A DNA stretch of 64,000 nt from Nitrospirota bacterium (GCA_963710375.1 CAVPZX010000004.1:224001-288000), one strand, 5' to 3'; positions 49,357-55,370 are shown, counted from the first letter of the stretch. The notes: generated by a model not told the origin, from the letters alone. Numbers and translations: made by a program.

Positions 49357-50406
49357 ATGATCGTCAACTTATTCAAAGGGAATAGGGCGTGGCTTTTAAT
49401 ATTATTAATGCTTTTGCTCGTTATCGCGAGCACCGCTTTAGCAGATGGAGACGATGCCCTTATAACAAGAGCGTCACAGATCATAGGGCCTTTACCGGCA
49501 TCTATGCCGTCGTCAGAGAATCCTATAACCCCGGAAAAGGTAAAACTGGGGAAGATGCTCTTTTATGAGCCGCGGATTTCTGTGGACGGATCGGTGAGTT
49601 GTTCTAAATGTCATCCCATAGCCCTGTATGCTGCTGACGGGTTGAAAAAGTCGGTAGGGAACAACTGTAAGGTAAACCCTAGAAACGACCCTACCGTCTT
49701 TAATGCGGCAAGCCAGATTTCGGAACACTGGATAGGAAACCGGACTAGCGTCGAAGACCAGGCAAAACAGGCTATTATTGGGCCGCCGGCCTTCGGCATG
49801 CCCTCTTATGAGGCGGCCGAGAAGGTACTTCGGTCATTTAAGGAATACGAAAACCTGTTTAAAGCCGCATTCCCTTCTGACAAGGAGCCGTTGAATATCG
49901 ATAACTTTGCAAAGGCTATAGGCGCCTTCGAGCGGACACTGATTACGCCGGCCCCTTTTGATGCATTTCTGAAAGGCAACAAGGATGCTATGACTTTACA
50001 ACAAAAAAATGGACTCGGGACGTTTATGGACCTGGGCTGCGTGGGATGTCATTTCAGTCCCTATGTCGGAGGGCAGATGTATCAGAAGTTCGGGATATTT
50101 GCGCCTTACGAAAAATATACGAAGAGCCAGCAAGTGGATGTGGGAAGATATGCCGTCACGAAAAACGAGAGCGATAAGTATGTATTTAAGGTCCCGGTGC
50201 TCAGAAACGTTGCGATGACTCCGCCTTACTTCCATGACGGGTCCGTAGACAATCTTACCGACGCTGTCTGGATAATGGGGAAGATTCAGTTAGGCAGGGA
50301 CCTTACAAAAGAGCAGGTGCAGGACATTGCGGCGTTTCTTCACGCGCTGACAGGGGAGATCCCGGAATATGTCAAAACGATTCCAGTATTGCCTTCATTG
50401 GAGTAA
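49357..50406 (+). CDS. Di-heme cytochrome c peroxidase (CcpA/MauG family)
   Basis: Signal peptide, CSKCH and CVGCH, FKVP.LRNV..T.PYFHDGS. Confidence 0.92.
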   Translation: MIVNLFKGNRAWLLILLMLLLVIASTALADGDDALITRASQIIGPLPASMPSSENPITPEKVKLGKMLFYEPRISVDGSVSCSKCHPIALYAADGLKKSVGNNCKVNPRNDPTVFNAASQISEHWIGNRTSVEDQAKQAIIGPPAFGMPSYEAAEKVLRSFKEYENLFKAAFPSDKEPLNIDNFAKAIGAFERTLITPAPFDAFLKGNKDAMTLQQKNGLGTFMDLGCVGCHFSPYVGGQMYQKFGIFAPYEKYTKSQQVDVGRYAVTKNESDKYVFKVPVLRNVAMTPPYFHDGSVDNLTDAVWIMGKIQLGRDLTKEQVQDIAAFLHALTGEIPEYVKTIPVLPSLE

Positions 50407-50456: not shown

Positions 50457-51038
50457 GTGAAGGAACCGAAAAGCGAACGGAAGACCGTTGTGTTCTCGAT
50501 CGGTCATTCGACGAGACCTGTCTCGGAGTTTATAGAAATTATGAGGGCCTATGGAATAAAGAAAGTAATAGACATTCGCACGATCCCGAAGTCGCGGCAT
50601 AACCCCCAGTTCAACAAGGATACGCTCAGGGAAAGTTTAAAGGCCGCCAAAATCGGATATCTCCACATGAAGGGGCTGGGGGGGTTGCGCCATGCACTGA
50701 AGGACTCGCCAAATACGGGATGGAGAAACGCATCATTCAGGGGCTTCGCAGATTATATGCAGACAGAGGAATTTGAAGGGAATCTCGAAAAACTTATAGA
50801 GGCTGCGGGGAGACGGGCGACAGTTGTCATGTGCGCCGAAACACTCCCGTGGCGCTGCCACAGATCATTGATAGGAGATGCCTTGTTCGTTTGCGGAGTC
50901 CATATGAGGCATATCATTAGCGCCGGCTCGATCAGGGACCATACTCTTACGCCGTGGGCAAAGGTCAAAGGAACAAAAATAACATACAAGGAGGACACTG
51001 ATGGGAGAGATAGTCCACACATCACGTATAAGGATTGA
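50457..51038 (+). CDS. DUF488 family protein
   Basis: SIGHSTR, DIRTIPKSR, LGGLR, MCAE..PWRCHRSLI. Confidence 0.88.
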   Translation: MKEPKSERKTVVFSIGHSTRPVSEFIEIMRAYGIKKVIDIRTIPKSRHNPQFNKDTLRESLKAAKIGYLHMKGLGGLRHALKDSPNTGWRNASFRGFADYMQTEEFEGNLEKLIEAAGRRATVVMCAETLPWRCHRSLIGDALFVCGVHMRHIISAGSIRDHTLTPWAKVKGTKITYKEDTDGRDSPHITYKD

Positions 51039-51465
51039 GAGGGAAAAAGGCCCAACCAGGAAAGCCGTCATCGAAGGCTTTGACGAACCGGTTTATTATG
51101 GTGTGCATGGTGGGATAAAAAACTTTTACAAAGTTGACACTGAAGAAGAACACGCTGCCACACTTGATCATATCGTGGCTGCAACTGCTGCCTGAATGAT
51201 GGGTACACTGGCCAGGGTGCTGGCTGGAAAAAAGATTTTCACATCGAAAGATCGCTATTGGGCGGATGTGGAAGGCATAATTGAAAATGTAAATAATATA
51301 CTGAAAATCACCCGCATCCTCGTCAAATACCACCTGAAAGTTCCAAAGGAAAAAGTCGGCGAAGCAAGAGCTGCGTTTTCTTCATACATCGAAGGCTGTC
51401 CCGCAGCCCAGAGCGTGATCGGATGCATTGATATTAAGGACGACCTGTTGATTGAGGAGGAATAA
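51001..51465 (+). CDS. OsmC-like selenoprotein (Sec at TGA 51193-51195), 154 aa
   Basis: Two in-frame ORFs joined by one TGA: ..LDHIVAATAA-U-MMGTL..; distal GCPAAQSV; SECIS-like hairpin; tRNA-Sec in window. Confidence 0.8.
51208..51227 (+). promoter_or_regulatory. SECIS-like hairpin
   Basis: CTGGCCAG-GGTG-CTGGCTGG; G-rich loop 20 nt after UGA. Confidence 0.65.
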
Positions 51466-51551: not shown

Positions 51552-52163
51552 ATGAAAATTTTTATTATCACTATGATGGGACTGTCACTTATATTCTTCG
51601 CAGCTACCACGGTCATGGCTGCAACCAATCTTGAGACGGCGACCTTCGCAGGCGGCTGTTTCTGGTGCATGGTACCCGCCTTCGACAAGATCCCGGGCGT
51701 GGTTTCGGTAACATCCGGATACACGGGCGGGGGGAAAAAGAATCCCACTTACGAAGAGGTCTCGGCCGGAGGAACTGGCCACGCCGAGTCGGTTCAAATC
51801 GTCTATGACCCGGCGAAAGTAACCTACGAAAAGCTCCTGGACGTTTTTTGGCACAACATTGACCCTACTACCAAGGACCGTGAGTTCTGTGATGTGGGGC
51901 ACCAGTATCGGAGTGCCATTTTTTATCAAAATGAAGAGCAGCACCGGCTGGCGCTGCAGTCAAAGGAACAGCTGGAAAAGAACAAACCCTTCAAAGCACC
52001 TATTGTAACAGAGATTGTGCAGGCAACTGAGTTCTACCCTGCAGAGGAATACCATCAGAACTATTACAAGAAGAACCCGATCCGTTACCATTACTACCGT
52101 TGGTCATGCGGTCGTGACCAAAGACTTAAGGACCTTTGGGGCGCTGCTGCGGGTCACGAATAG
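51552..52163 (+). CDS. msrA: Peptide methionine sulfoxide reductase A (exported)
   Basis: AGGCFWC, GYTGG, GHAE, AEEYHQ.YY; N-terminal signal peptide. Confidence 0.94.
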   Translation: MKIFIITMMGLSLIFFAATTVMAATNLETATFAGGCFWCMVPAFDKIPGVVSVTSGYTGGGKKNPTYEEVSAGGTGHAESVQIVYDPAKVTYEKLLDVFWHNIDPTTKDREFCDVGHQYRSAIFYQNEEQHRLALQSKEQLEKNKPFKAPIVTEIVQATEFYPAEEYHQNYYKKNPIRYHYYRWSCGRDQRLKDLWGAAAGHE

Positions 52164-52177
52164 CTGAGGAGGCAGTT

Positions 52178-53629
52178 GTGGCAAAATATGATTATGATAT
52201 AGGCATTCTGGGCGGCGGCGCAGCAGGCCTTACTATTGCGTCAGGAGCAGCACAGTTTGGCGCCAAGGCACTTCTTATAGAAAGGGAAAAATCATTGGGT
52301 GGAGACTGTCTTCATTTCGGTTGTGTTCCGAGTAAAACGCTTATCAGGACGGCAAATGTTTATCATCTCATGAAAACCGCCGAAAAATACGGTCTCCCGC
52401 ATGTTGATCTAAAGCCTGTGGATTATCGTGAAGTGGCAAAAAGGATCCAGTCGGTTATAAGTGTTATACAGGAGCATGATTCCGGCGAAAGGTTCTGTGA
52501 ACTGGGTGCAAGGGTTGAATTCGGGAATGCGAGCTTCACAGACGAGCATAGTGTCAGGTTAAATGGGGGAAAATATTCAGCTAAGAGCTGGGTCATCGCC
52601 ACAGGATCTTCACCTGCGATCCCTCCCATAGAAGGCATAGACAAGACTCCTTATATAACAAATAAAGAGATTTTTTCTCTGTCCAGTCTTCCAAAATCAA
52701 TGATAGCCATCGGAGGAGGCCCCATATCAAGCGAGTTAGCCCAGGCATTCAACAGACTAGGAACAAAGGTCACTGTGGTAGAACTCGGCAATCAGGTTCT
52801 AGGAGTTGAGGACAAAGACATGGCAGACCGTCTTATGAATGTCCTAATCTCCGAGGGCATAATATTCCATTTGAGCTCTTCAATCCTCTCGGTAAGAGAT
52901 CTTGGCAATGAAAAAGAAGTTGTTATTAAGGACAACGGTGGCAACACCCTGAGTCTAAGGGCCGAGACCATACTTGTTGCAGCCGGGAGACAAGCCAACC
53001 TGAAAGGACTCGGCATTGAGGACATCTCTCTCGAATTCGACAAAAAAGGCTTGAAAGTGGACGAGTGGCTGAGAACAAGCCATAGGCATATCTTTGCCGC
53101 AGGTGATGTCACAGGGGCCTATCAGTTTACCCATGCAGCCGGATATGAAGGCGGCATTGTGCTCAGCAATGCTATTCTTCACCTGCCGAGGGCAACGGAC
53201 TATACGAACTTTCCCTGGTGTACATATACCGACCCTGAGCTTGCAAGCATAGGAATGAACGAAAAAAGAGCCACAGCAGCGGGTATACATTATTCTGTCT
53301 GGACCGAAAAGTTTAAGACCAATGACAGAAGTCTCGCAGAAGGAGAAGAAGCAGGAATAATAAAGCTTCTCCTGGATGAGCACGAAAAACCTATCGGCAT
53401 CCAGATCCTGGGGCCTCAGGCAGGAGAATTGGTCAGTGAATGGGTGTCTATTATGAATGGAAAAGTTAAACTTTCTACTATTGCATCAGCCGTTCATCCT
53501 TATCCCACCCTCGGGGAGATCAATAAGAAAGTCGTTGGGAATTTTTTTTCCAGCAAGATTTTCTCCGACAAGGTAAAAAAGGCACTGAAATTCTTTTTTA
53601 ATCTAAAGGGGAGAGCTTGCGGAGCATAG
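52178..53629 (+). CDS. Class I pyridine nucleotide-disulfide oxidoreductase (LpdA/MerA-like)
   Basis: GGGAAG, GGDCLHFGCVPSK, GDV, HPYPTLGE. Confidence 0.9.
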   Translation: MAKYDYDIGILGGGAAGLTIASGAAQFGAKALLIEREKSLGGDCLHFGCVPSKTLIRTANVYHLMKTAEKYGLPHVDLKPVDYREVAKRIQSVISVIQEHDSGERFCELGARVEFGNASFTDEHSVRLNGGKYSAKSWVIATGSSPAIPPIEGIDKTPYITNKEIFSLSSLPKSMIAIGGGPISSELAQAFNRLGTKVTVVELGNQVLGVEDKDMADRLMNVLISEGIIFHLSSSILSVRDLGNEKEVVIKDNGGNTLSLRAETILVAAGRQANLKGLGIEDISLEFDKKGLKVDEWLRTSHRHIFAAGDVTGAYQFTHAAGYEGGIVLSNAILHLPRATDYTNFPWCTYTDPELASIGMNEKRATAAGIHYSVWTEKFKTNDRSLAEGEEAGIIKLLLDEHEKPIGIQILGPQAGELVSEWVSIMNGKVKLSTIASAVHPYPTLGEINKKVVGNFFSSKIFSDKVKKALKFFFNLKGRACGA

Positions 53630-55272: not shown

Positions 55273-55370
55273 TGGCGGGAGCGTGTGGGAATCGAACCCA
55301 CCCTGCCGGTTTGTGGCCGGCAACACTGGATTTGAAGTCCAGGAGGGACACCAGAACCCTATGCACTCCC
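55273..55370 (-). tRNA. selC: tRNA-Sec (anticodon TCA)
   Basis: 98 nt; anticodon loop CTTCAAA, long variable arm TGCCGG/CCGGCA, GTGGG-TTCGATT-CCCAC T arm, GCCA end. Confidence 0.93.

Follow-up and report, generated by a model that had tools for sequence, protein, structure and literature searches.

An OsmC/Ohr-fold gene interrupted by a UGA codon that is very probably decoded as selenocysteine in a Nitrospirota genome

In a stretch of 64,000 nucleotides from the genome of a Nitrospirota bacterium (GCA_963710375.1, CAVPZX010000004.1:224001-288000; hereafter the window, whose positions are counted from its first letter), two short open reading frames (ORFs) of 64 and 89 amino acids share a frame, directly adjoin each other and are parted by a single TGA. 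Is this TGA the end of a gene, or does it encode an amino acid, and if it does, which one, and what would the complete protein do? The initial annotation, made from the sequence alone, had proposed that one OsmC-like selenoprotein is split by standard gene calling and that selenocysteine (Sec) occupies the place of the peroxidatic cysteine. We conclude that positions 51001-51465 (Table 1) form one gene for a protein of the OsmC/Ohr fold, in which the UGA at 51193-51195 is very likely decoded as Sec and SelB would be recruited by a predicted hairpin.

Table 1. Features of the OsmC-like locus and its surroundings, with positions in the window
Feature	Position	Strand	Basis or remark
Di-haem cytochrome c peroxidase	49357-50406	+	Window annotation
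DUF488	50457-51038	+	Window annotation
Shine-Dalgarno sequence AAGGAGG	50988-50994	+	6 nt 5' of ATG 51001; read from the sequence
Joined OsmC/Ohr-fold gene, 154 residues	51001-51465	+	Pfam match, predicted fold, TGA-bearing orthologs (168/169)
Upstream ORF, 64 aa	51001-51195	+	Stop TGA 51193-51195
UGA codon 65, predicted Sec at the peroxidatic-Cys position of OsmC/Ohr	51193-51195	+	Orthologs and profile alignment
Downstream ORF, 89 aa	51196-51465	+	Stop TAA 51463-51465
Predicted bacterial SECIS hairpin	51208-51227	+	5' arm 51208-51215, GGUG loop 51216-51219, 3' arm 51220-51227
Cys133 codon TGT, GCP motif	51397-51399	+	Aligned with the second (resolving) Cys of OsmC/Ohr in alignments
MsrA, Cys form	51552-52163	+	Window annotation
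Pyridine-nucleotide disulfide oxidoreductase	52136-53629	+	Window annotation
tRNA-Sec gene (selC), anticodon TCA	55277-55370	-	Rfam RF01852, 68.2 bits against a gathering threshold of 47; ARAGORN

Fold and putative active site of the joined protein

Translation across the TGA gives a read-through product of 154 residues (...DHIVAATAA-U-MMGTLARVLAGKK...YIEGCPAAQSVIGC...), with HIVAATAA-U-MMGTLARVLAG around the predicted Sec. The distal GCP motif noted in the initial annotation is present within EGCPAAQS. The start of the OsmC-like gene is overlapped by the DUF488 gene over 38 nt. Scanning the window for other ORF pairs split by a TGA returned 32 candidates, all of which, except the OsmC-like gene, looked like noise on inspection.

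The Pfam family OsmC (PF02566) matched the joined protein over residues 56-145 with 26.7 bits (E = 7.5e-6). This search had been suggested as a check in the initial annotation, and its outcome is mixed: the match does span the TGA, but its score lies 0.8 bit below the gathering cut-off of 27.5. Neither ORF half alone gave a match to Pfam OsmC, and PF02566 is a precomputed assignment on many close relatives. Scanning the NCBIfam models returned no family-level match (best score 14.7 bits against a cut-off of 85.8).

We built a monomer model with AlphaFold2 from 55 aligned relatives (mean pLDDT 85.2, pTM 0.81). The model is weak around residues 31-50, with a pLDDT near 50 in the YYGVHGG loop. 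Comparison with PDB structures using Foldseek placed E. coli OsmC (1nye/1qwi) first, followed by other OsmC-like and Ohr structures. There were 50 matches at E <= 0.001, and the ones listed have a probability of 1.00, TM values of 0.5-0.6 and identities of 12-20%; OsmC proper and YhfA-type entries both occur among them, at similar scores. According to this model, the three-dimensional fold is that of OsmC/Ohr, and the OsmC-like identity proposed at the outset is supported by the OsmC/Ohr folds that head the PDB comparison and by the Pfam match across the TGA just below its cut-off.

At the sequence level the relationship is distant. A search with the family profile against the sequences of solved structures returned nothing at E <= 0.01, and OsmC/Ohr proteins emerged only at E <= 10, as weak matches (E = 0.02-0.33) that agree with the fold matches. 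In these weakly scoring alignments, column 65, the TGA column, corresponds to Cys59 of E. coli OsmC (1qwi, in AAHAACFSMAL) and also to the equivalent Cys of the Ohr protein 6d9n and of the Thermus OsmC, in agreement with the proposal that Sec replaces the peroxidatic Cys. Cys133 corresponds to the Cys of the C-P motif in 1qwi, 1ukk and 6d9n. Following the OsmC/Ohr literature, we take Cys59 and the GCP cysteine of E. coli OsmC to be its peroxidatic and resolving cysteines. The protein thus appears to keep two redox positions aligned with both OsmC/Ohr cysteines, Sec65 on a long helix and Cys133 in the C-P motif. Conservation of Cys133 is at least 90% in our alignments A2 and A3, and Cys133 and Pro134 both show at least 90% conservation or do not vary at all. 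Two residues without any variation in alignment A2, Arg20 and Asp56, are candidate catalytic residues beside the peroxidatic position. The N-terminal 55 residues have no aligned OsmC/Ohr counterpart in the profile alignment.

E. coli OsmC (1QWI/1NYE), a two-cysteine hydroperoxide reductase, is the best structural match to the present protein. In the profile alignment its Cys59 lies under Sec65 and the cysteine of its GCPVSQ under Cys133. It differs in having Cys rather than Sec, in its 18-20% identity and in that the N-terminal third is left unaligned by sequence. Ohr (for example PDB 6D9N, 6EB4, 1N2F and 1ZB9) has the same fold, and 6d9n is the best sequence-profile match with its Cys in the same column. 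The two-Cys mechanism of Ohr is the model for the one that we propose here. Ohr is reduced by lipoyl groups, and PDB titles among the Foldseek matches mention dihydrolipoamide. The present protein differs from the Cys-based Ohr also in that its gene has no link to a lipoyl protein or another reductant.

In the proposed mechanism, SelB with Sec-tRNA(Sec) would bind the hairpin at 51208-51227 and insert Sec65. As the peroxidatic residue, Sec65 would attack a hydroperoxide, and Cys133 of the GCP motif would resolve the resulting selenenic acid to a selenenylsulfide, which a thiol donor would re-reduce as in OsmC/Ohr. We infer both the selenium insertion and the peroxidase activity of this OsmC-like protein.

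Gene context adds little about the donor. The neighbours on the + strand between 49357 and 53629 are oxidative-stress-type genes that surround the OsmC-like gene (Table 1), and this context recurs in close relatives only. Among 168 loci, MsrA was found at 10, the disulfide oxidoreductase at 4 and UbiE at 3, and CCP, DUF488 and PIN at none; clustering of 157 flanking ORFs gave groups of at most 6 members. Neither the 168 loci nor the 157 flanking ORFs contain a conserved partner gene that points to a reductant. With no neighbour that recurs throughout the family, no thiol donor can be named.

The protein may also be a true selenoprotein of the OsmC fold that is no hydroperoxide reductase and in which Sec65 and Cys133 serve redox chemistry of a different kind, for instance thiol-disulfide exchange or the handling of sulfur or selenium, as suspected for uncharacterised OsmC-like/YhfA-type proteins. 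The low similarity to characterised OsmC/Ohr proteins (12-20% identity, profile E-values of 0.02-0.33) would suit such a role, as would the lack of a match to a specific NCBIfam model, the N-terminal 55 residues without an aligned counterpart, the low-confidence YYGVHGG loop and the fact that no counterparts of the catalytic Arg and Glu of Ohr/OsmC could be placed. We nevertheless consider it unlikely, although a reading to be reckoned with, since both active-site cysteine positions of OsmC/Ohr are kept, with Sec at the peroxidatic one, and since the neighbours in the window are oxidative-stress genes, though this context is not conserved in the family. Peroxide reduction through Sec65 and Cys133 therefore remains our preferred reading.

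The UGA codon across relatives

We collected 169 full-length loci at the DNA level, comprising 9 from the own genome and relatives, 80 from species genomes (the best 80 of 395 confirmed matches) and 80 from metagenomes (the best 80 of 512). A few of these represent one record reached by two routes, and decayed or partial copies (L021-L024) were excluded from the count. The aligned codon is TGA at 168 of the 169 loci and TGC at one (L084, from a Smithella-labelled assembly), and TGG was found at none. On either side of the TGA the loci share 71-93% of their amino acids with the query, and those that conserve the codon come from several phyla; the relatives are kin, and these locus counts, like the pairing and codon counts given below, overstate independence.

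More distant homologs mostly carry Cys at the site. Alignment with Cys-containing homologs, as the initial annotation had recommended, placed Cys in the same column in 21 of 28 distant full-length homologs (27-62% identity), the others having W (1) or Ala, Asp, Gly or Ser (6). Among 19 full-length database proteins that are close relatives, W is found at the site in 10 and C in 9. For five of the database proteins with C, the nearest locus is L084 (83-94% identity), which is the case in which the Cys codon was seen in DNA.

Could the TGA be a true stop that leaves either a broken gene or two separate genes for proteins of 64 and 89 aa? This is how standard gene calling divides 51001-51465, and databases hold many C-terminal pieces of 88-91 aa and N-terminal pieces of roughly 60-100 aa; moreover, selA was not found in the assembly. 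A nonsense mutation is, however, unlikely to be kept at 168 of 169 loci from several phyla with both flanks conserved as protein. Neither half matches OsmC by itself, inspection of the sequence before the ATG at 51196 showed no Shine-Dalgarno-like ribosome-binding site, and synonymous sites in the hairpin downstream of the codon are constrained (see below). We consider a true stop very improbable.

Reading of the UGA as Trp, Cys or Gly, through a reassigned code or near-cognate suppression, is scarcely credible either, although W stands at the site in those 10 of 19 database proteins. TGA is the stop codon of 5 of the 13 Pfam-supported genes near the locus and the terminal stop of 86 of the 168 orthologs, and the code is therefore not reassigned; the genome furthermore has a dedicated tRNA-Sec, selB and selD. 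The initial annotation had singled out Trp in homologs as the observation that would speak against Sec, and W does occur in the database proteins, yet at the DNA level TGG is absent from all 169 loci. One of the proteins with W (P0004) shares 98% identity with L074, a locus that has TGA, which indicates gene calls in the style of translation table 4, and the nearest loci of the other W proteins all have TGA. No exact copies of the W or C database proteins were found among the fetched loci. Given the complete lack of TGG and the one pair with 98% identity, the Trp forms in databases are best explained by a table-4-type gene call that rendered TGA as Trp. Sec is thus the reading of codon 65 with which we continue.

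The predicted hairpin and the selenocysteine machinery

Bacterial SECIS elements are hairpins shortly 3' of the UGA whose apical loop has a conserved G (and U). Downstream of codon 65, the sequence CUGGCCAG-GGUG-CUGGCUGG can form such a hairpin within the codons for L70-G76. The stem and its GGUG loop are present as the initial annotation had described them, but the distance of 20 nt after the UGA that it gave is that to the start of the loop, and the stem begins 12 nt after the UGA. Folded by itself, the single sequence does not stand out from chance (z = -1.3; of 200 shuffles, 19 fold equally well), and we judge the hairpin real because of its relatives, not because of the single sequence.

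Pairing was examined in 148 unique Sec-form sequences, with positions numbered from the U of the UGA as 1. The six core pairs (17-34 to 22-29) show standard pairing in 98-100% of these sequences, and overall pairing is 89%, compared with 6-54% in controls with the 3' partners shifted by 1-3 nt. At the outer pair, 16-35, the bases pair in 84% of the sequences (C-G in 108, U-A in 16; C-A in 23), and wherever position 16 is U, which is so in 16 sequences, position 35 is A. Pairing falls to 32% at 23-28, the innermost pair of the stem in the window, and most relatives would therefore have a 6-nt loop. The loop G at position 24 is present in 145 of the 148 sequences.

The stem lies inside the conserved peptide L-A-x-x-L-A-G. 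A control by synonymous recoding, based on minimum free energy, gave a weak signal (mean z of -1.07; 22 of 141 sequences at the 5% level), which suggests that much of the stem is already set by the LA..LAG peptide. The codons themselves are more telling. We compared codon usage in 157 unique ORFs with a background consisting of the same genes outside codons 70-76. Ala71 is encoded by GCC in 152 of 157 ORFs (background 40%). At codon 72, Ala is GCG in 46 of 46 (background 24%) and Thr is ACG in 56 of 57 (background 22%), and the third base of this codon, which is the first G of the loop, is thus fixed irrespective of the amino acid. Codons ending in G are used for Leu70 in 156 of 157 and for Leu74 in 147 of 147 (background of CTG and TTG together 51%). 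Gly68, outside the hairpin, varies freely (GGA 70, GGG 52, GGC 26, GGT 9). In the single Cys-form locus (L084), two conserved G residues are lost and the folding energy is -6.7 kcal/mol, compared with a mean of -13.4, which is a single case. Judged from these sequence comparisons, the hairpin is conserved at the RNA level, and its near-fixed synonymous sites fit the expectation for a bacterial SECIS with a G/U-containing apical loop.

The arrangement resembles SECIS elements of the fdhF type, in which G/U features of the apical loop bind SelB. In both, the hairpin begins some 11-12 nt 3' of the UGA and is part of the coding sequence, and the apical loop contains G and U, the present loop being GGUG. 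The predicted hairpin differs in that no Rfam model reports it; an Rfam scan of the window returned the tRNA-Sec as the sole match.

This tRNA-Sec gene is located 3.8 kb downstream of the OsmC-like gene, and selB and selD are encoded on contig C2. The own assembly (G000) consists of 3.19 Mb in 9 contigs and is 98.8% complete. Profile searches detected selB with 365 bits (cut-off 242) and selD with 317 bits. The selD gene (L009, G000:C2:370755-371696, - strand) has one in-frame TGA, and SelD would therefore itself be a selenoprotein.

The gene selA was not found in the own assembly by TIGR00474, PF03841 or tblastn with SelA from the same genus. In the relatives search, 21 of the 26 genomes, among which the own genome is counted, have the gene, as do 5 of the 9 that belong to this genus. 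In one congener (G003; L192, G003:C3:886000-904000), folD and folE are encoded within about 3 kb of selA. Neither folD nor folE had a match in the own assembly, and folD was found in 12 of 14 control genomes. The genes that flank the other side of selA in this congener map to contig C6 of the own assembly (about 19 kb), where they are followed by unrelated genes. Because folD and folE are missing along with selA, we favour a block that was left unassembled or unbinned, which is likelier than a real loss. The initial annotation had named a genome lacking selA, selB and selD as evidence against Sec; tRNA-Sec, selB and selD are all present, and selA is the part that the assembly does not supply.

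Relation to known OsmC-like selenoproteins

The statement that OsmC-like selenoproteins had been reported before proved correct, as the family was predicted in 2005 (PMC1088965). Zhang, Fomenko and Gladyshev described it there as a selenoprotein family named OsmC-like protein, from three Sargasso Sea sequences, belonging to COG1765/YhfA and having the motif UxxT. The exemplar in that description is a protein of 137 aa whose Sec is residue 40 (...GIGFuLLTQL...) and whose second motif is GCF. The family is relisted in the GOS analysis (PMC2398784), in a study of Olavius symbionts (PMC1976440) and in reviews of 2022 (PMC9312934) and 2026 (PMC13188914). Our search of the literature on selenoprotein OsmC/Ohr found no experimental study of a Sec-containing OsmC.

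Going by that published description, the 2005 family and the present protein are alike in several respects. Both are small PF02566 proteins in which a single Sec takes the place of the first cysteine, the one on the helix, and a Cys lies close to the C-terminus; in both genes a SECIS hairpin comes right 3' of the UGA, and both are known by computation only. As far as the description of the exemplar goes, the two differ in length (154 aa compared with 137), in the position of Sec (Sec65 compared with Sec40), in the longer N-terminus of the present protein and in both motifs (UMMGT compared with uLLT, GCP compared with GCF). In place of UxxT, the present protein has Thr at +4 (U-M-M-G-T), and Gly68 and Thr69 are invariant in alignment A2.

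Proteins of the present clade have 153-167 aa and share UMMGT and GCP. The clade is distributed over anaerobic Nitrospirota and Desulfobacterota-type lineages, with 395 confirmed matches in the species genomes scanned. We tentatively suggest, with a little less than even confidence, that it is a separate and so far undescribed clade of OsmC-fold selenoproteins (UMMGT...GCP, longer N-terminus), distinct from the marine COG1765/UxxT family, and that Sec rather than Cys is the rule in this separate clade (168 of 169 loci). If so, few unannotated selenoproteins of anoxic soils and sediments would be more common.

Most entries of the family in public protein collections are fragments, whose last residue is 62-64 or whose first is 66, and the full-length forms with W at the Sec site sit on short contigs. 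Such a pattern is what gene callers typically leave when they end the gene at the UGA or change to a code in which TGA is Trp. With entries that are split or carry what looks like a false Trp, and with no NCBIfam model that matched it, the gene will be missed by selenoproteome counts and oxidative-stress inventories. The inventories affected are those of anaerobic Nitrospirota and Desulfobacterota-type genomes, and the main value of the present gene lies in annotation. The gene itself is real and very probably decodes Sec; it belongs to a widespread clade, and the kind of selenoprotein that it represents was known before. For the specialist it is an ordinary gene that leaves the knowledge of selenocysteine decoding unchanged. 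It would add a further case in which Sec replaces the peroxidatic Cys of a peroxide-reducing enzyme, and the unusually strong preference of the clade for Sec could make it useful for asking which advantage Sec has over Cys in proteins of this fold.

Two additional copies were detected in a genome of the same genus (G002). The first (L022, G002:C100:15603-15917) is a distant paralogue with 42% identity and one frameshift that has a TGA at the same site, and the predicted use of Sec therefore reaches a deeper branch of the family. The second (L021, G002:C24:27758-28171) is an extra copy with 61% identity and several frameshifts, and looks decayed.
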